Assembly: GCA_016869515.1 (NCBI GenBank) | Contig: VGDZ01000006.1 | Location: forward strand, 12,592 to 76,591 | Source: Alphaproteobacteria bacterium | GTDB taxonomy: Bacteria > Pseudomonadota > Alphaproteobacteria > VGDZ01 | Length of the DNA stretch: 64,000 bases | Direction of reading: 5' to 3' | In this document: positions 4,843-52,918 of the stretch, one piece after another | Numbering within the stretch: the first letter of the stretch is position 1 | Layout of the letters: the number at the start of each line of letters is the position of its first letter | Position numbers and translations under genes: made by a program | The notes under the pieces: model-generated | Seen by the model: only the letters and a program-made list of their open reading frames with translations | Told to the model about the DNA's origin: nothing | The model's database searches: none

Positions 4843-4918
4843 GGTGCCCAGGGACGGAATCGAACCGCCGACACGGGGATTTTCAGTCCCCTGCTCTACC
4901 GACTGAGCTACCTGGGCA
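4843..4918 (-). tRNA. tRNA-Phe (anticodon GAA)
   Basis: The reverse complement reads GCCCAGGTAGCTCAGTCGGTAGAGCAGGGGACTGAAAATCCCCGTGTCGGCGGTTCGATTCCGTCCCTGGGCACCA. Cloverleaf with T-loop GGTTCGATTCC and a 3' CCA; coordinates within ±2 nt. Confidence 0.9.
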
Positions 4919-12450: not shown

Positions 12451-13590
12451 TCATTCGGGGGCGTGGAGTCCCGTCGGCGCCCGGATCGCGATGCGGGCGG
12501 TTACGCTCAGGGATGCGGGATCCAGCGCCAGGACTTCGTCGGCGGCGGTCAGCGCGACCATGATCCGGCCGCCGCTCCGGTCGAGCGCCGCCGCTCCCAA
12601 GGCGCGGCCCGGGCGCGGAGTCGCGGCGGCAACAACGCGCCGACGAGCAAGGTCGAGCACCTCGATGCGATCGCCGGCGATGGCGATGGCATGGCCGGGT
12701 TGGGGATGCGCCAAGAGCCGGCCTCCGGGCCGGCTTAGCGGCATTTGTCCGACCAGGCGCCAGTCGACGGCGGAAACCAGGGCGATGGCGGCGGGTTCGA
12801 CGATCGGAATCGCCACCAGTTCCGCGCCGGCCGCCAAGGCCTTGCCGGCGGCGTATTGCCCCTTCAGGGCTACGGCCGCGAACACCCGCCCGATATAGAG
12901 ATCGAGCCCGCGAGCGACGGAAGCGCCAGGTCCGAGGCCGAGCAAATGCTCGCCGTCGGGCAGGGCGACGATCTCGGTCATGACGTCGGGCAGCGGCATC
13001 CGGCGCGGAAGAAAGCGCGGCACGGCGGCGGGCGGCCCGTCATTGCGATAGTCGTGCACCCAGCCGCGATGGGGCGGGTTGTCGCCAAGCGGTATCTCCC
13101 AAACCTCGGCAAGATCGGAAAAACCGACCAAGAAACTCTTGCGCGCGGGCAAGGCAAGCACCGCCGCGGGCGTCGGCGTATGGCCGCCCTCGATGCGCAG
13201 CGGAATGGAATGTCGCTCGGTCAAATCGGCCATCGCCAAGATCGACAGCGAGGGCGGCGCGAGGGTCGCAACCACGACCAGATCGCCGTCTCCCGAGGCC
13301 GCCAAGCCTGCCGGCCGGCCGCGCAGCCGCACCTGACCGACGATCCGGCCGGCGGCCAGGTCGATCCTGACGGCATGGCCGTCTTCAGTGGCGAGGACGG
13401 CCTGGCGTCCGGCCGGGTCGAAGCGGACGCTCGCGAGCGGCGCGGGCAACTGACCGATGTCGATCGCCTGGTCGTCGGCGATGACCGCGAGGTGGCCATG
13501 CTCGCCCATGGCCAGGACGGCCGCCGAGGCGGGCTGGACGAATGCCAGTGCCGCTAACATCGTGACGGTGCGCGACAGCGCTTGGGTCAT
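12451..13590 (-). CDS. nirF: cd1-like 8-bladed beta-propeller protein without a heme c motif (NirF-like)
   Basis: 379-aa protein with signal peptide and no CxxCH. Beta-propeller-like repeats. Positioned in a nirS locus. Confidence 0.55.
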   Translation of the reverse strand: MTQALSRTVTMLAALAFVQPASAAVLAMGEHGHLAVIADDQAIDIGQLPAPLASVRFDPAGRQAVLATEDGHAVRIDLAAGRIVGQVRLRGRPAGLAASGDGDLVVVATLAPPSLSILAMADLTERHSIPLRIEGGHTPTPAAVLALPARKSFLVGFSDLAEVWEIPLGDNPPHRGWVHDYRNDGPPAAVPRFLPRRMPLPDVMTEIVALPDGEHLLGLGPGASVARGLDLYIGRVFAAVALKGQYAAGKALAAGAELVAIPIVEPAAIALVSAVDWRLVGQMPLSRPGGRLLAHPQPGHAIAIAGDRIEVLDLARRRVVAAATPRPGRALGAAALDRSGGRIMVALTAADEVLALDPASLSVTARIAIRAPTGLHAPE

Positions 13591-13604
13591 GATCGGTCCC
13601 GTCT

Positions 13605-13738
13605 AGGGCATGATCGATCTGTCTTGAACCATAGAGTTCAAGACAGATCGCGGATCATGCCCTCGTATCCTGCTCTGGACCGCGATTCACGGTTCATAGG
13701 GAATCGCGGCCGTGATTCCCAATGAACCGATCGCGGTC
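13605..13738. repeat. MITE/REP-like intergenic repeat, copy A (two hairpin modules)
   Basis: Module 1 is an inverted repeat GGGCATGATCGATCTGTCTTGAAC...GTTCAAGACAGATCGCGGATCATGCCC. Module 2 is a nested palindrome GACCGCGATTCACGGTTCATAGGGAATCGCGGCCGTGATTCCCAATGAACCGATCGCGGTC. The same element recurs at four other sites. Confidence 0.85.
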
Positions 13739-14144
13739 TAGGGCCGGACAACGACCGAGCCGACCATGCCCTCCTGTTGCCAATGCGGGCCGCAAAGATA
13801 GCCATGCGTCCCCGGCGGCAAGTGTCGACATGCTCGCCGCCGAAGAGGCGGGCCGATTCCTCGCGTCCGGCGGCCTTGAACCAGACGCTGTGCGACGTCC
13901 GCCGATCGACATTGACGAAGCGCAGCGTGGTGCCGGGCGCGACCGCGATGCTGAGCGGGCAGAAGCTGTGCTTGTACATGGTCACGACCGGAACGCCGGC
14001 GGCGGAACTGGGTTGGCCGAAAACCTCCCGGTAGCGCTGCTCGGCCTCGGCGCAAATCTCGCGCTGCAGCGCGGCCTTGTCGGCCTGGGCGGCGGCGCCC
14101 ATCGCCATCAGGCACCCGACCACGGCCGCGATCGCCCGCTCCAT
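13738..14144 (-). pseudogene. cupredoxin (amicyanin/pseudoazurin-like blue copper protein) with an apparent single-nucleotide frameshift
   Basis: The N-terminal part (signal peptide MERAIAAVVGCLMAMGAAAQA, then ...HSFCPLSIAVAPGTTLRFVNVDRRTSHSVWFKAAG) is in one frame. The C-terminal copper-ligand motif GTHGYLCGPHWQQEGMVGSVVV is in another frame. The junction lies at ~13805-13835, in a G4/C4 run. Confidence 0.55.
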
Positions 14145-14164
14145 GACGCCGCGATCCCGCGGAC

Positions 14165-15868
14165 CTATCGCTTGCGGGCGTTGATGTCCGCCCCCGGCGT
14201 ATCGAGACCGAAGCGGTAGTCGACCGAGACGTGGTGGAAGCGCGCGGCGCTGAAGTCGTCGTGGACGGCGAAGCCAAGGGTGTATTCCTTGCCCGGTTCC
14301 AGGCTCACGTCGCCGGGCTGGTCCGACCGCAACGGCCGCCGCAGCATCACCGTCCAGACGCCGTTTTCGAGCCCGCCTTGGCCTTCGATCTTGACGCCGC
14401 CGGTCATCACGCGCTCGGCCATGACGTGGCCGTTCTCGACCGTGCCGTCGGCCGACCAGCGCATCAGATCCATGAAGGTCCCGCCCTTGAGCAGGGCTTC
14501 GAGATCCGCCGCCGGCTTGAGCTTGTCCCAGCCGCCGCGCGGGCCGTCGCTGCCTTGGATTTCGATCGCGGTCCGCGATTCCGGAATGTATTTGGTGACC
14601 ACCTTGCCGGCGGGCGCCGAGGGCATCGATCGCGAATCGTGATGGCACGTCGCCCAACAGCTCGATTGGTCGACGCGCTCGATGCCGGTGCCGGCGATCA
14701 TGATCGCCAGCTTGGTCGCATTCTTGGCATCCATCTTGCCGCCGGGCACGAAGGGCGCGGGGGCATGCGGCGTGTCCGGCCACTGGAAGCGCAGGCTCAG
14801 GGTCTGGCCGTCGTGCATCGCTTGGACCTTGAGATCGATGAAGGGCCGCTTGCCTGGGATCGGCGTCGCCTCGACCTTCTGGCCGGAGACGATCTTGGCG
14901 CCCATTTCCTTGGCTTCCTTGGCGTGGCAGGTCGAGCAGCGATCGCCGGCGCGCAGGAAGGCGCGGGCGCCGCCATGATCCTTGCCGGTCAGCAGCCACT
15001 CGTAGGACGCCTGCCCGGGATAGAACAGCGGCACGGTGACCGCCTCGACATCGCCCCAGGCGCCGGCCGAAGCGGGGGCGGTGGAAGCAGCGGCGGCGGT
15101 CGCCGCAGGGGCCGAGGCGGCGGAGGCGACCGGGGCGGCGGCGGGGGGCGATGCCGGCATGGCGGCCTGCGCCTTCGCTGCCTTCTCCTTGGCGGCGATG
15201 CGATCGAGGCTGTCGAGGAATTCCCTCGGCACCGGCCGCGCATCGGCGGGAATCGGCCGCTCGAGTCTCTCGAGCTCGGCCTCGGCCAGGCGGTCGCGGA
15301 CATTCTTGTGGGCGATGCCCTTGTGGCAGTCGATGCAGGTGTTGCCGGCCTGCATGGCATCGAGATGCGGCTTGCGCGCGCGGGGGCGCTGAAGTTCGGG
15401 ACTCATCGACTGCAGGGTGTGGCAATTGCGGCATTCGCGGCTGTCGGTCTGCTTCATCGAAGTCCAGACCCGCTTGGCGAGCTCGAGGCGCCGGGCCTCG
15501 AATTTCTCGGGCGTGTCGACCGTGCCGAGCGCCCAATGGAACAGCTCGTTGGTGGCCTGGATCTTGCGCGCGACCTTATGAACCCAGGGATTGGGGACGT
15601 GGCAATCCGAGCAGGTGGCGCGAACGCCGGTGCGGTTTTGAAAGTGTATGGTGTCGCGATACTCGGCGTAGACGTTGTCCCGCATTTCGTGGCAGGAAGT
15701 GCAGAATCCCATGGTGTTGGTGGCTTCCATCGCGGTGTTGAAGCCGCCCCAGAAAACGATGCCGCCGAAAAATCCCACGGCCAGGATCGCCAGCAGCGAG
15801 TAGCGGGAACTCGGCCGCGTCAGGACGCCCCACAGCGCGGCCAGGCCGCTGGTGGATGGTTGGGACAT
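14165..15868 (-). CDS. nirT: membrane-anchored multiheme c-type cytochrome: NapC/NirT tetraheme domain fused to a C-terminal two-CxxCH (NirB-like) domain
   Basis: The N-terminal ~200 aa are typical NirT/NapC (TM anchor, four CxxCH: CTSCHE, CSDCHV, CRNCHT, CIDCHK). An Ala/Pro-rich linker follows, then ~280 aa carrying CSTCHAK and CWATCHHD. Confidence 0.8.
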   Translation of the reverse strand: MSQPSTSGLAALWGVLTRPSSRYSLLAILAVGFFGGIVFWGGFNTAMEATNTMGFCTSCHEMRDNVYAEYRDTIHFQNRTGVRATCSDCHVPNPWVHKVARKIQATNELFHWALGTVDTPEKFEARRLELAKRVWTSMKQTDSRECRNCHTLQSMSPELQRPRARKPHLDAMQAGNTCIDCHKGIAHKNVRDRLAEAELERLERPIPADARPVPREFLDSLDRIAAKEKAAKAQAAMPASPPAAAPVASAASAPAATAAAASTAPASAGAWGDVEAVTVPLFYPGQASYEWLLTGKDHGGARAFLRAGDRCSTCHAKEAKEMGAKIVSGQKVEATPIPGKRPFIDLKVQAMHDGQTLSLRFQWPDTPHAPAPFVPGGKMDAKNATKLAIMIAGTGIERVDQSSCWATCHHDSRSMPSAPAGKVVTKYIPESRTAIEIQGSDGPRGGWDKLKPAADLEALLKGGTFMDLMRWSADGTVENGHVMAERVMTGGVKIEGQGGLENGVWTVMLRRPLRSDQPGDVSLEPGKEYTLGFAVHDDFSAARFHHVSVDYRFGLDTPGADINARKR

Positions 15869-15906
15869 GCGCGAGGCTCTTTCCGTCGTCGCGGGTGGAG
15901 GAAAAC

Positions 15907-15935
15907 GGGGCGCCGGGGAGAGATCCCGGCGCCCC
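15907..15935 (-). terminator. stem-loop (11-bp GC stem) between nirS and nirT, followed by GUUUUCC on the transcript; possible attenuator
   Basis: GGGGCGCCGGG-gagagat-CCCGGCGCCCC perfect inverted repeat. Partial U-tract only. Coordinates approximate. Confidence 0.35.
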
Positions 15936-15942
15936 GCCGGTC

Positions 15943-17664
<1,722 letters not shown>

Positions 17665-18247: not shown

Positions 18248-18322
18248 GCCCACATAGCTCAGAGGTAGAGCACCCCCTTGGTAAGGGGGAGGTCGAAGGT
18301 TCGATTCCTTCTGTGGGCACCA
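18248..18322 (+). tRNA. tRNA-Thr (anticodon GGU)
   Basis: GCCCACATAGCTCAGAGGTAGAGCACCCCCTTGGTAAGGGGGAGGTCGAAGGTTCGATTCCTTCTGTGGGCACCA: anticodon loop CTTGGTAAG, T-loop GGTTCGATTCC, 3' CCA. Coordinates ±2. Confidence 0.9.
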
Positions 18323-23659: not shown

Positions 23660-23731
23660 GCGGCCGGGGAACCCCGAGGAGACTAGCGGGGCTTCAGCCT
23701 AGACCATGATCGACGTCAATGGAATTGCCTA

Positions 23732-23866
23732 GACCGCGATCGGTTCATAGGGAATCGCGGCCGCGATTCCCTATGAACCGTGAATCGCGGTCCAGAGCAG
23801 GATACGAGGGCATGATCCGCGATCTGTCTTGAACTCTATGGTTTAAGACAGATCGATCATGCCCTA
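23732..23866. repeat. MITE/REP-like repeat, copy B (inverted relative to copy A); a short fragment also at ~24011-24034
   Basis: Contains the perfect 38-nt palindrome GGTTCATAGGGAATCGCGGCCGCGATTCCCTATGAACC plus the GGGCATGATCCGCGATCTGTCTTGAAC module. Confidence 0.85.
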
Positions 23867-24034
23867 ACCGCGCCGAACGCGATGGGCGGCGATTCGGGCC
23901 CCGCCCTCGAAAGGCGATCGATCGGCAGGGAACCGCGCGAGCGATCCTTTCGGTTCGCAAATCGCGCGCCCGAAAAGGATTGGGCGGAGATTTGCCGCGA
24001 TCCGCCCGAAACCTCGCGGTTCAAGACAGATCGA

Positions 24035-24583
24035 TCAGGCTTTGGCTTCCTTGGCCTTGCGTTCGGCCATCTCGGCCACCTGGCGCAGGGTGGCCATCAA
24101 CACCTTGCCGGTGGCGTCGGTCGAGCTCTTGAGGTCCTTGGCCACCACCACGCGCAGGGTCTCGGCGAACTTGTCGGCGATCTCGACCGTCTCCTGGGCG
24201 TCCTTGGGGGCGGCGTCGAGATAGTCGCAGCCCAAATCGCAGATCGTGCTGACCAGCGGATAGCCCATGGTCGAGCCCTTGCCGCGCAGATCGTGCCAGA
24301 TGCCGCGCAACCGCGCCAATTGCGCCGCGCGCTTGCCGGGCTCGGCCTTGGCGATCTGCAAGGCCTTTTCGCCGCGGGTCGCTTCCTTGGCCAGAATCTG
24401 GGTGAATTCGCCTTGCAGCGTCGCCACGGCCTTTTCGGCGCGGGCGAACAATTCCTCGACCATCCGGCCCGGCATCGGCGCGGCCTTGAGGGACACCGGA
24501 TTGGGGTTCGGAATCAGTTCGTGGTTGGGCGGTTCGGATTGCGGTCCGGGACCGGCGGGTTTGGGTGAATCGCTCACGGCCAT
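24035..24583 (-). CDS. Hpt (histidine phosphotransfer) domain protein
   Basis: 182-aa protein with HDLRGKGSTMGY (HxxKG...G HPt signature). Immediately downstream of a receiver-domain gene. Confidence 0.65.
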   Translation of the reverse strand: MAVSDSPKPAGPGPQSEPPNHELIPNPNPVSLKAAPMPGRMVEELFARAEKAVATLQGEFTQILAKEATRGEKALQIAKAEPGKRAAQLARLRGIWHDLRGKGSTMGYPLVSTICDLGCDYLDAAPKDAQETVEIADKFAETLRVVVAKDLKSSTDATGKVLMATLRQVAEMAERKAKEAKA

Positions 24584-35915: not shown

Positions 35916-36159
35916 GACGTTTTTCTCCCCCTGGATTGAAACACCAGTCGGCCCGATCGGACCGGAGTCGACACGAAGCTGGTGAAGATGATCGAAAGCA
36001 AAGATCGGATCGAAACTTTGAACAAAGTCGGAGACGCAACCTCGCTCCCGAAAAGCTCCGCGGTTCGAGGCTGCCGCCAAATGCAAATCGGAATTAGAAT
36101 CTATCGCTTCTCGGCGACGGCGGCAATCGGCCTCGGCGCGGGATGCGGTGTCGCCGAGG

Positions 36160-36291
36160 ACATGATCGATCTGTCTTGAACCGCATGATTCGAGACAGAT
36201 CGCGGATCATGCCCTCGCATCCCGCTCTGGACCGCGATTCGCCGTTGGCATGGAATGGCGCCCGCGATTCCATGCCGACCGATCGCGGTCC
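36160..36291. repeat. MITE/REP-like repeat, copy C (diverged module 2)
   Basis: CATGATCGATCTGTCTTGAAC...GAGACAGATCGCGGATCATGCCC, followed by GGACCGCGATTCGCCGTTGGCATGGAATGGCGCCCGCGATTCCATGCCGACCGATCGCGGTCC. Confidence 0.8.
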
Positions 36292-36324
36292 ACGCTGGAC
36301 TTGCATCGAGGAACGCGGGCGGGC

Positions 36325-46353: not shown

Positions 46354-48360
46354 TCAGCCGATCCGGAAGCGATTGCGAAGGCCGAGGCCGATCAGGAACA
46401 GCAGGACGCCCGAGACGATCTGCTGCGACAGAACCCACAGGCGCATGCCGAAGGGAAGGTCCAAGTCGCCGTCGAAATCCCGCAGCCCCAGGTTCTTGGT
46501 GACGGTCTTGTAGCTTTCTCCCGCCGGCCCGGCGATCGGGACGGAATTGAGGAGGGCGAAATCGATCAGCGCCTCGGCTTTCTTGGCATTCTCGACATCG
46601 TGCGCGATCAACGGGCTGGGCGGGAATTGGCCGGCGCCATGAATGGCGATGCCCCCCACCGTAAGCAGGACGATCATGGTCGCTATTCGGTTTTCCCAAC
46701 TCCACTTGCCGCGCGTAAAGGGCGGCCGGCGGACGAATGGGACATACACCGCGACAAGGGACAGAGCCCACAACACGCCCCAGTGATCGAACATGGCGAT
46801 GTTTTTCGAGTCGTAAAATGCGGCAAAACCCAGGATAACGGCACCGAGCCATAGCATCGGCCGCATCACCGACCGTCCGCAATCCGAAAGCAGCCAATAA
46901 ATGCCCAGCATGAAACTGGACGCGATCAGCGCGCCATGGCGCCCGCTGGCATGGAACGCCCCGCGCTCGGCGTGCTTTTCCAGCACGAACAGATCGCGCG
47001 CCGTATCGTGCGCCGCGTTCGTTTCCATGATCGCCCGCAGGCGCCGGATGCGGGTCAGTTTCAAACTGTCCTTGGTCCAGTCGATCCGCATGCCCTTGGG
47101 AATGAACCAGGGCAGATCTTTGGCCGGGTCCCTTGCCCGAAACGTGGTCCCGACCATGTCGATGCGGTGAAGATTCTCGGCATCGCCGAACTCGGGCGGC
47201 TGCTTGAACACCGCATCGCGAAAACTCAACGCGCCGTTCAGTTTCCTGCCGCTGAAATTGATCGTCCCGTTGAATCGGGCGCCAGTGAAATCCATGTCGG
47301 GCAGCGTGCGATACGATTCGGAATCCTCACGCCGCATGATCTCTTTTTCCCATGCGTCGTTGCCAGTGGGATTTTCCCGGCGCATGTTCTCGACAAATTG
47401 CTTCCACTCCGATTCGGTCCAGCCGCGAAACTGGCAATTGTGAAATTCGGCGGAATTGAATCGGGCAAAACCAAGAAATATGGTTCCGGAGAAATCGGCG
47501 TAGTCGCCGAACCGCGCGCCGGAGAGATCGGCTCCATTGCCGAACCGCGCGCCGGAGAGATCGGCGAGATTGCCGAACTTCGCGCCGGAGAGATTGGCCC
47601 GTAAGTCGAATTGCGCGCCGGAGAGATTGGCGCTGTCACCGAACCGCGCGCTGGAGAGACCGGCCCTAAAGCCGAACCACGCGCCGGAGAGATTGGCTCT
47701 TTCGCCGAACTGCGCGCCGGAGAGATCGGCGAAATTGCCGAACTTCGCGCAGGAGAGATTGGCGTCGTCACCGAACTGCGCACCGGAGAGATCGGCACCG
47801 TCACCGAACTGCGCGCCGGAGAGATTGGCACTATAGCTGAACCGCGCGCCGGAGAGATCGGCCTCATGGCCGAACTGCGCGCCGGAGAGATTGGCCGCAA
47901 AGCCGAACTGTGCGCCGGAGAGATTGGCCCATACGCCGAACTGTGCGCCGGAGAGATTGGCCGCAAAGCCGAACTGTGCGCCGCGGAAACGGATTGCCTC
48001 ATTCTCGGTCCGTCGAAAATCGACACTAGATAGATTGACCGGTTTGAATAGAGCGAGGCGGGCGGCCTCGTCGCTGCTTTCCAGACCGAAGTGCTCGCTC
48101 TTATGCAGGATGTCGGAAAGTCGGGTGTTTTTTGCCAGGGCGGCTTCGATTATTGGTAGCGCTTCGTCATCCGTAAGTTTTCGCCACTTGCGGCCCGCTC
48201 TTATTAGGCTCGTATCTTCGATCTCCTGTCTGGCTTGCTCCGTCCCCTTCATCCACTCGTTCCACGTCTCCACCCCCAGCCGCGCCAAAGCGAGCCAGAG
48301 TTTTTGCGGCATCTGGTCGCTGGTGTCCTGGTCCGGGGGCGGCGGGGCGGGCGCGCTCAT
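46354..48360 (-). CDS. pentapeptide-repeat protein with C-terminal multi-TM domain
   Basis: 668-aa protein. N-terminal ~110-aa domain, then ~17 near-identical 10-residue units (A[ND]LSGA[QR]FGx, two pentapeptide coils each), a ~200-aa linker, then ~5 TM helices. Visibly lower GC than its surroundings. Confidence 0.85.
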   Translation of the reverse strand: MSAPAPPPPDQDTSDQMPQKLWLALARLGVETWNEWMKGTEQARQEIEDTSLIRAGRKWRKLTDDEALPIIEAALAKNTRLSDILHKSEHFGLESSDEAARLALFKPVNLSSVDFRRTENEAIRFRGAQFGFAANLSGAQFGVWANLSGAQFGFAANLSGAQFGHEADLSGARFSYSANLSGAQFGDGADLSGAQFGDDANLSCAKFGNFADLSGAQFGERANLSGAWFGFRAGLSSARFGDSANLSGAQFDLRANLSGAKFGNLADLSGARFGNGADLSGARFGDYADFSGTIFLGFARFNSAEFHNCQFRGWTESEWKQFVENMRRENPTGNDAWEKEIMRREDSESYRTLPDMDFTGARFNGTINFSGRKLNGALSFRDAVFKQPPEFGDAENLHRIDMVGTTFRARDPAKDLPWFIPKGMRIDWTKDSLKLTRIRRLRAIMETNAAHDTARDLFVLEKHAERGAFHASGRHGALIASSFMLGIYWLLSDCGRSVMRPMLWLGAVILGFAAFYDSKNIAMFDHWGVLWALSLVAVYVPFVRRPPFTRGKWSWENRIATMIVLLTVGGIAIHGAGQFPPSPLIAHDVENAKKAEALIDFALLNSVPIAGPAGESYKTVTKNLGLRDFDGDLDLPFGMRLWVLSQQIVSGVLLFLIGLGLRNRFRIG
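47497..47990. repeat. tandem 30-bp direct repeat array (about 16 units) inside the pentapeptide-repeat CDS
   Basis: Plus-strand consensus GCCGAACTGCGCGCCGGAGAGATTGGCnnn repeated head-to-tail at high identity. Coordinates approximate. Confidence 0.8.
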
Positions 48361-48454
48361 GGCGCCATTTCAAGCCGCGCAACCTATGCGCGCAAGAAGA
48401 ATCTGGCAGCTATGCGCCGACCGGCGGACCCGGCTTTCGGGCGACGGGGCTAGG

Positions 48455-48585
48455 CCGCGATCGATTCATAGGAAATCGCGGCCGCGATTCCCTATGAACC
48501 GTGAATCGCGGTCCGGAGCGGGATGCGAGGGCATGATCCGCGATCGGTCTTGAACCCAGTCGTCCAAGGCCGATCAATCATGCCC
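48455..48585. repeat. MITE/REP-like repeat, copy D (copy-B orientation)
   Basis: GATTCATAGGAAATCGCGGCCGCGATTCCCTATGAACCGTGAATCGCGGTCC...GAGGGCATGATCCGCGATCGGTCTTGAAC. It overlaps the 3' end of vapC. Confidence 0.8.
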
Positions 48586-48994
48586 AAGGATCGATCACCG
48601 CGATGCCGCAGCCGGTGTAGTCGGCGGCGTTGCGGGTGGCGACCGCGGCGGCATGGGCGCGGGCGATGGCGGCGATCTGGCAGTCGATCTGGCCGATCGG
48701 CCGACCGGCGGCGCGGCGCCCGGCGGCGATGACGGCATAGGCGCGCGCGGCGGCGCGGTCGAAGGGCAGGATGCGGTCGCGGAAATCCTGTTCCAGCATG
48801 GCCTCGATCGCCTCGGCCAATGCGCGGCGCCTGCGGCCCGCCGGCAGGATGGCGACGCCATGGCGCAATTCGACCTCGCTGAGCGTCGTCAGCCAGATCG
48901 CGTCCCCGTCCTGGGCCGAAAGCCAGGCCGCGACCGGGGGCGCCGGCGCCGGCCGGAGCATTTCCGAGACCACATTGGTATCCAGCACGATCAT
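48578..48994 (-). CDS. vapC: type II toxin VapC (PIN domain ribonuclease)
   Basis: 138 aa from the internal Met (MIVLDTNVVSE...). PIN acidic residues present. Overlaps vapB by 4 nt. Confidence 0.85.
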   Translation of the reverse strand: MIVLDTNVVSEMLRPAPAPPVAAWLSAQDGDAIWLTTLSEVELRHGVAILPAGRRRRALAEAIEAMLEQDFRDRILPFDRAAARAYAVIAAGRRAAGRPIGQIDCQIAAIARAHAAAVATRNAADYTGCGIAVIDPWA

Positions 48995-49245
48995 CGCCGC
49001 CGGCCCTTGAACCGGGGCGGGGCGCGCATCGGCGCGCGCGCCGGCAGCTCCAACTCGACTCCGCCCAAGGGCGCGATGCGGGCACGGATCGCCGCCGCCA
49101 AATCGCGCGGGGCCGCGCCCCGCCCGACGGCGCGGCGAAGGATTTCGCGGGCTTCCTCTTCCATCGAGCGGCCGCATTCGGCCGCCCGCACCCTCAGGCG
49201 CCGCTTCAGCCCGTCGTCAAGATTGCGGATGGTGATGCTGGCCAT
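48991..49245 (-). CDS. vapB: type II antitoxin VapB (FitA/ribbon-helix-helix-like)
   Basis: 84 aa from the internal Met (MASITIRNLDDGLKRRLRVRAAE...). The classic antitoxin-before-toxin pair. Confidence 0.75.
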   Translation of the reverse strand: MASITIRNLDDGLKRRLRVRAAECGRSMEEEAREILRRAVGRGAAPRDLAAAIRARIAPLGGVELELPARAPMRAPPRFKGRRR

Positions 49246-49367
49246 GGCGACGCTCCCGATCTCAGCGCATTTTAAGCATTGATGGCATTGCAATCAATGC
49301 AATCGAAACGGCGCCGTCACCGCGCCGCGTCGATCGGCCGGCGGGAAGCTGGGCGGCGCGAAGCCGG

Positions 49368-52677: not shown

Positions 52678-52794
52678 GGCGAGCGATCTGAGTCCGGAAG
52701 GCGCGGCGCAGAAATCGGGCCGCGAAGGTGGACGGCCTCAATAGACCAACTCGGCGGCATCGGCAAAGCCAAAATGCGAGGCGGCGCTGGCCTA

Positions 52795-52898
52795 GGGGAT
52801 GTTCGATCGGTATTGAACCATAGGGCCCAAGACAGATCGTGAATCATGCCCTCTTGTCCCGCTCTGGACCGCGACTACCTATGAACCGATTGCGGTCC
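52795..52898. repeat. MITE/REP-like repeat, copy E (degenerate)
   Basis: TTGAACCATAGGGCCCAAGACAGATCGTGAATCATGCCCTC...CTGGACCGCGACTACCTATGAACCGATTGCGGTCC. Confidence 0.7.
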
Positions 52899-52918
52899 AG
52901 CCCCCTGACTCGATCGGT

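Follow-up and report, generated by a model that had tools for sequence, protein, structure and literature searches.

A non-coding repeat of about 135 bp recurs between the genes of the 64-kb window (the whole stretch of DNA analysed here), in either orientation and close to gene ends. The locus thus raises two questions: what kind of element this is, and why it comes to lie against stop codons.

A two-hairpin element in dispersed copies

Five clear copies and one decayed copy, built on a 133-nt core, are found in the window. Their positions, the parts of copy A and the stop codons that touch the copies are as follows:

13604-13740 (+): copy A, including both TA flanks (13604-13605 and 13739-13740); core 13606-13738; covariance model 167.9 bits
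13606-13662: module 1 hairpin of copy A
13663-13677: linker of copy A
13678-13738: module 2 hairpin of copy A
13738-13740 (-): TAG stop of the cupredoxin-like gene, made of the flank TA (13739-13740) and the terminal base of copy A
23730-23866 (-): copy B, including TA flanks (23730-23731 and 23865-23866); core 23732-23864
about 23914-24039 (-): copy F, full length, old and strongly decayed; found with nhmmer; covariance model 31.7 bits, E 3.7e-5
24035-24037 (-): TGA stop of the 182-aa ORF upstream of copy F, inside the terminus of that copy
36156-36292 (+): copy C, subfamily II; core 36158-36290; flanks decayed to GA and CA
48451-48587 (-): copy D; core 48453-48585
48578-48580 (-): TGA stop of the VapC (PIN) ORF, which runs 3 codons into copy D
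52793-52899 (+): copy E; core 52795-52897; covariance model 61.6 bits

The five clear copies lie where the initial annotation had placed them, with ends shifted by 1-4 nt. A fragment that it had noted near 24011-24034 does consist of repeat sequence; it is, however, the end of the whole decayed copy F, 47 nt from copy B. The copies constitute the longest inverted and direct repeat families of the window in a repeat search. Pairwise identities range from 72 to 98%, the highest being that of copies A and B, which are 98% complementary over 139 nt in an inverted-repeat search. When the flanks are included in the alignment, similarity ends sharply at the element termini; since the flanks are unrelated between copies, these are not segmental duplications. 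Copy C, 33 nt 3' of the stop of a dipeptide ABC ATPase gene, is altered on both arms of the module 2 inner stem, and copy E, 19 nt 3' of the stop of an RPE65-family gene, is an internal-deletion derivative that has lost about 30 nt of module 2 and retained both ends. The two motifs by which the repeat had originally been described (a module 1 motif, at 4 sites with at most 3 mismatches, and a module 2 palindrome, at 3 sites) match at element sites only, and in none of 100 shuffles. Four short ORFs that had been called spurious (13694..13912, 23745..23960, 36094..36306 and 48523..48732) are present and each overlaps a copy. Among the properties by which MITEs are recognized, small size (<300 bp), a non-coding sequence and dispersed copies with unrelated flanks are found in the element, and the earlier description of a dispersed, non-coding, MITE-like repeat in both orientations at gene ends is supported.

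The core consists of a first hairpin, a linker of 15 nt with conserved sequence (TCGYATCCYGCTCTG) and a second hairpin, which together make up the 133 nt. Module 1 (57 nt) has 24-nt arms, a 6-nt loop and a conserved 3-nt bulge in its 3' arm (GATCG-CGG-ATCATGCCC). Module 2, of 61 nt, forms a nested palindrome whose asymmetry is conserved: TCAC at the 5' side faces G at the 3' side; in copy B its central 38 nt form a perfect palindrome, as originally noted. Each hairpin arm resembles a copy of the element end sequence. For copy A, the fold consists of two hairpins with -96.3 kcal/mol (shuffles -45.9 +/- 4; z = -12.6), and the opposite strand folds nearly as well. Two subfamilies can be distinguished by mirrored changes in the inner stem of module 2 (CATAGGG/CCCTATG versus GGCATGG/CCATGCC). 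In copy E and in a copy on another contig (L4a, locus L004), the inside of module 2 is deleted and both ends are kept.

A profile search of loci from relatives revealed a diverged homologue, termed R23 here (ERZ25514882 contig NODE_23, L023 20470-20602). It is about 60% identical to the window family and shares the 133-nt core, the two hairpins, the bulges and the linker. Among nine full copies, 93% of stem cells are paired and two-sided changes occur in 6 pairs. When R23 is added, two-sided changes occur in 17 of the 51 pairs, distributed over all four helices, and 94.9% of cells are paired; neither value is reached in any of 500 shuffles of this set, and slid controls give about 30-46% pairing. 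The palindromes are thus under constraint, and this could act at the level of DNA (as inverted arms that bind protein) or of RNA. With 15 G.T and 11 A.C, the mismatches in the stems are balanced and show no preference for either strand as RNA. The terminal inverted repeat is weak in the window family, where 12 of 24 positions match (8 of the first 13; core GATCG); in R23, 17 of 24 match (10 of the first 13).

Two further features of the copies may be mentioned. The 8-mer CCGCGATY occurs four to five times per full window copy in alternating orientation (for example, 13646-13736), with 19 of its 57 window sites inside elements, and is absent as a conserved motif in the diverged R23. Also, the module 1 loop and the module 2 inner stem seem to co-vary by subfamily (CATAG versus GCATG type) in copies C and A/B and in L001 562-694; this is anecdotal, being seen in two to three sequences, and could reflect homogenization or alternative pairing.

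TA flanks and neighbouring stop codons

TA is present on both sides of six copies and on one side of three more. The base outside the TA is C or T on the left and A or G on the right (Y-TA-R), and the flanks are otherwise unrelated. A 4-bp YTAR duplication was considered and is ruled out by the outer bases of the two flanks, which differ. In seven of the 11 copies, a flank TA and the terminal G of the element form the TAG stop of a real neighbouring gene. Altogether, eight genes with Pfam support to the C-terminus end at such a flank TAG: those for the cupredoxin-like, RR-Hpt, FliJ, FdtA-like and MazG proteins, an alpha/beta hydrolase, a Fer2 protein and muconolactone isomerase. In the last of these the TAG is mutated to CAG, and the ORF continues for 7 codons to a TGA within the element. 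The codon preceding the stop ends in C or T in all eight genes.

At copy L4b, nothing but the element separates the convergent genes for MazG and the hydrolase, and the flank TAs serve both of them. Its reconstructed empty site, GGCCGT-TA-GCTCAT, provides TAG on one strand and TAA on the other, and only a shared TA that was then duplicated explains the double use. Removal of the element together with one TA restores TAA or TAG at every reconstructed site, which argues for a 2-bp TA target duplication. The TA target-site duplication is thus suggested by reconstruction from stop codons in the sequences. Several exact-protein look-ups of window genes had no match; the others yielded filled sites or contigs broken inside the repeat, and no filled-versus-empty site pair.

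Outside the elements, stop codons account for 17 of the 676 TA sites and 5 of the 41 YTAR sites in the window. The seven stop-codon insertions among 11 copies lie far above random use of YTAR sites, with an estimated probability of about 1e-4, or about 1e-2 if the comparison is limited to non-coding and stop-codon YTAR sites.

At copies D and F, the upstream ORF stops at a TGA within the terminal GGGCATGA. The ORF at copy D belongs to a pair of FitA-like antitoxin and PIN (VapC) toxin genes (48578-49293, minus strand), and VapC now ends ..PWA*. Its C-terminus is altered, either by the insertion of copy D or by a later 1-nt change.

The cupredoxin-like gene next to copy A (13738-14144, minus strand) is split over two frames, with the change near 13848. 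If one base is added at about that position, the product is a protein of 135 aa matching PF00127 Copper-bind (24.4 bits) to its last residues; the split is either a real frameshift, and the gene a pseudogene, or an assembly error. An alternative view, in which copy A splits an ATGA-overlapped gene pair, proved wrong: the true C-terminus of the cupredoxin-like protein ends at the element-flank TAG.

Distribution, host and genomic context

Confinement to the window, which the initial annotation had named as a ground for rejecting a genome-wide family, does not apply to the element; 6-7 more copies are present on four other contigs, in addition to R23 in a related organism. The four contigs, all from JGI Ga0194120, were found with a conserved 22-nt pattern in one metagenome scan, and the element alone is common to them and the window. 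Independent short-read Logan assemblies of three SRA runs (L015, L016, L018 and L019) are 100% identical to the window and end inside copies B (23814) and A (about 13629); such breaks are the behaviour expected of a multi-copy repeat. R23 is itself flanked by TA within CTAG, 2 nt 3' of a TGA stop.

Beyond these sources the family appears to be narrowly distributed. The 22-nt pattern, conserved in five copies, has no match in 185,579 species representatives that include Caulobacter and Brucella, and a module 2 outer-stem pattern has five single matches in the same set, none of them related; such exact-pattern scans would miss diverged or distant relatives. The five outer-stem matches (in Actinomycetota, Kiritimatiellia and Myxococcota) are due to chance according to nhmmer. 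Likewise, no match was found by blastn in 72,556 PLSDB plasmids, including rhizobial megaplasmids. At the gathering threshold, Rfam matches in the window consist of two tRNAs only, at 4845-4917 (minus strand) and 18248-18319 (plus strand), and a search of the element at E<=10 returned sub-threshold miRNA-hairpin noise only. No copies were detected in the 21-kb loci of a sister organism (76% amino acid identity) or of three other relatives, the latter, which include a Reyranella sp., searched with the covariance model.

A weak model match in L020-22 is a different palindromic repeat and not a member of this family. This other long palindrome (GTCATGGCCGGGCTTGATCCGGCCATCCACG...), found in a relative at L020 20511-20595 and again in L021 and L022, seems to represent a further REP-like family in alphaproteobacteria.

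A window protein has a counterpart of 100% identity in an NCBI/JGI MAG, and its nearest relatives are 72-76% identical, some of them labelled Reyranella. The affiliation with Rhodospirillaceae that had been proposed is not supported, and the relatives are Reyranella-like. The expectation that the copies are not part of a larger IS or prophage is borne out: among the approximately 50 window ORFs, which are ordinary genes of a chromosome (aspS, hisD/hisG, a murA-like gene, a nirS cluster, the transporters liv and dpp, and pxp, tct, asd and pel, among others), there is no transposase, integrase or phage gene. The genes on either side of each window copy are co-directional, on the minus strand, and the copies themselves occur in both orientations.

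Some of the neighbouring genes are noteworthy in their own right. Copy A lies inside an apparent operon of the denitrification type (12451-17592, minus strand), whose genes encode a cytochrome cd1 (NirS-like, 549 aa), a NapC/NirT-ethylbenzene-dehydrogenase-like fusion (567 aa), the cupredoxin-like protein and a second cd1-like protein (379 aa). The ORF at 46354-48360 (minus strand) encodes a 668-aa pentapeptide-repeat protein and contains, at 47420-48046, at least 13 tandem 33-nt repeats with 64-81% identity to a reference copy.

Origin of the element and its relation to known repeats

The element occurs in multiple copies and both orientations, has given rise to deletion derivatives that keep their ends, is bracketed by Y-TA-R and shows compensatory changes. 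It is likely to be a non-autonomous MITE whose movement depends on a transposase supplied in trans, one that duplicates TA and is of the IS630/Tc1-mariner or IS711-like type. The known elements of this kind have related targets: IS711 duplicates TA at YTAR (PMC2266754); ISY100 inserts at TA, and IS630/Tc1-mariner elements use TA (PMC2170065); and RUP is thought to be moved by IS630-Spn1, TA termini being the rule for bacterial MITEs (PMC2229807). A DDE transposase acting in trans would target Y-TA-R/CTAG and duplicate the TA. TAR on either strand would read as a stop codon, and such sites would be rare inside high-GC3 genes, so that tolerated insertions would pile up on stop codons. Since both element ends start with G, TA plus G would rebuild TAG and leave the protein intact. 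The insertion target Y-TA-R, and not a terminator role, accounts for the location at gene ends; no terminator-like site was found around copies A, B and F, and no T run in the flanks of copies A-E.

A partner transposase, or a full-length IS with matching ends, was found neither in the window nor in L001-L005, and an IS630 transposase query (tblastn) had no match there. The only IS630-family element seen is that of the sister organism (L006 1050-1992), with an HTH orfA, a DDE_3 orfB and an A8 slippery run; it is flanked by TA, and its ends read TA followed by GAGCGGTGTG. As a parent of the hairpin element it is rejected, given the unrelated ends and the negative tblastn result.

Once inserted and co-transcribed, the element would bring a hairpin of -40 to -50 kcal/mol right up to the stop codon. 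Translation termination and mRNA decay or processing are probably affected, to judge by analogy with REP, Correia and ERIC sequences, as a side effect and not as the reason for the presence of the element. A hairpin that touches the stop may stall ribosomes, as described for E. coli REPs within 15 nt of a stop codon (Liang et al. 2015, in the form cited in PMC12306157), and RNase III processing or protection from exonucleases are possible by the same analogy.

Such effects lie at the centre of a different view, in which the element is chiefly a host-selected RNA or DNA module, and not an active mobile element, with copies homogenized by gene conversion. Candidate roles are those of a 3'-UTR stabilizer, an RNase III site, a translation-termination attenuator or a protein-binding array. 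The strong compensatory covariation in four helices, the 133-nt core length kept exactly between lineages, the placement of all window copies between co-directional genes at or near stop codons and the ribosome stalling cited above for REPs (at most 15 nt from the stop) are consistent with such roles. However, the element occurs in both orientations relative to transcription, its mismatch balance favours no transcribed strand, it matches no Rfam family, and signals of a promoter or terminator are absent from it. The genes next to the copies are unrelated in function; the TA flanks, together with copies that have decayed or carry deletions, bear the marks of insertion and decay; and symmetric arm changes are equally expected of inverted repeats bound by a transposase. 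A host-selected module is accordingly quite improbable. We also regard as unlikely, if less so, an element that homes to stop codons, in which the G termini are kept because they rebuild TAG, and the hairpins, bulges and CcrM (GANTC) sites have been co-opted as stop-codon regulators. Were this the case, the element could adjust how operon mRNAs undergo termination, trans-translation or RNase III processing, and the regulation would possibly be linked to methylation or the cell cycle.

The REP label of the initial annotation implies yet another origin, namely hairpins that act as single-stranded DNA and are spread by a RAYT (an IS200/IS605-like tyrosine/HUH transposase), with no target duplication. 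Both hairpins are imperfect, with conserved asymmetric bulges of the kind by which HUH enzymes tell the strands apart; going inwards from the outside, each hairpin is preceded by 'YTAG'; and REPs are typically located 3' of ORFs (PMC3733652). In addition, an HUH-type element that inserts 3' of YTA and carries its own terminal TA would produce the same flank pattern, which counts against a transposase-borne TA duplication. The label nevertheless fails by definition: a REP is a 20-40-bp unit with a GTAG or CGTC head (PMC3733652, PMC2817692), whereas the present units are 57-61 nt with stems of 24-28 bp, and their YTAG head has a variable first base in place of a conserved GTAG or CGTC. The two hairpins also differ in sequence, although a single TnpA would be expected to recognize hairpins that are alike; eight genes have their native stops in the flank TAs, implying that a host TA was duplicated; and no Y1-transposase gene is found among the approximately 50 window ORFs. 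A REP/REPIN-type origin is therefore extremely unlikely, and the MITE reading is preferred.

The last view, which overlaps with the MITE reading, is that the element is a member or distant relative of the CIR/Bru-RS repeats (Caulobacter CcrM-associated intergenic repeats, and Bru-RS1 and Bru-RS2 of Brucella), perhaps kept for a methylation-linked or other host role. CIR elements are about 103-116 bp long and consist of two stem-loop arms and a linker, with TA termini, conserved GANTC sites for CcrM methylation and no ORF, in alphaproteobacteria; they are listed without a TIR, their TSD being unknown and their mobility mechanism likewise (PMC2229807). The present element agrees with CIR in every architectural trait listed, namely the two independent arms and linker, the TA termini, GANTC, the host group and the lack of an ORF. 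GANTC occurs two to four times per full copy, with 13 of the 149 window sites within 787 bp of elements (about 7 times background density), and two sites are conserved in position in R23 (GATTCAC in the module 2 bulge and GATTCC in the module 2 3' arm). Bru-RS sequences are, moreover, hot spots for the YTAR-targeting IS711 (PMC2266754). On the other hand, the pattern scans that included Caulobacter and Brucella, exact as they are and blind to distant relatives, and the blastn search that included rhizobial megaplasmids returned nothing related. The element is also AT-rich relative to its genome (54% versus 68% GC) and its palindromy mirrors each GANTC, so that the enrichment amounts to only two or three independent sites. 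Kinship with CIR/Bru-RS is possible but doubtful.

Taken as a MITE, the element represents a sequence family that had not been described before, is restricted to its lineage and belongs to a known kind, that of bacterial MITEs, here with an architecture that by description resembles CIR. That it lands on stop codons and regenerates TAG is well supported, but is to be expected from target preferences already known. Its copies account for spurious short ORFs, for altered C-termini (VapC and muconolactone isomerase) and for the repeated breaks in assemblies of this MAG lineage, whose annotation should mask the element. It also provides a clean natural example of how target choice and genome composition together set a mobile element on stop codons and leave the genes unharmed.

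Several known systems share parts of this picture. The autonomous IS711 (IS5 family) and IS870/IS630 elements resemble it in their YTAR/CTAG target and duplicated TA dinucleotide, but are 0.8-1.2 kb long and encode a transposase, in contrast to a 133-nt passenger with unrelated ends. IS870, for its part, reportedly uses its CTAG target to complete a stop codon. Like REP/BIME/REPIN and RIME sequences, the element is a dispersed extragenic palindrome 3' of ORFs, a mosaic of palindromic modules whose hairpin near the stop codon can affect translation and mRNA decay. Unlike them, it has no GTAG/CGTC head and no RAYT was seen; it has far longer stems and TA flanks, and gave no blastn match on rhizobial megaplasmids. 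The RUP, Correia/NEMIS, ERIC/IRU and Nezha elements are likewise small, non-coding and intergenic, with TA flanks or target and stable hairpins, are co-transcribed and occur in many copies with deletion variants. In RUP-type MITEs, however, the two ends pair into one long stem, whereas the present element has two independent hairpins and a linker; it has no known parent IS whose ends match; and its host is rich in GC, so that insertions concentrate on stop codons, unlike those of RUP-type MITEs.

The closest resemblance in description is to CIR/Bru-RS, a comparison made by description only: both are intergenic alphaproteobacterial repeats of about 100-135 bp with two long stem-loops and a linker in place of one end-to-end hairpin, TA termini, conserved GANTC and YTAR-type targets. 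The present element is slightly longer (133 nt versus about 100-120 bp), and its GANTC sites lie in a stem or bulge and not, as in CIR/Bru-RS, in the terminal loop. It extends two-arm repeats of the CIR/Bru-RS type to an uncultured freshwater alphaproteobacterial lineage. Furthermore, unlike CIR, whose mobility was never explained, it allows a TA duplication and a terminal inverted repeat (clearest in R23) to be deduced, and offers evidence for these together with structure-preserving evolution.
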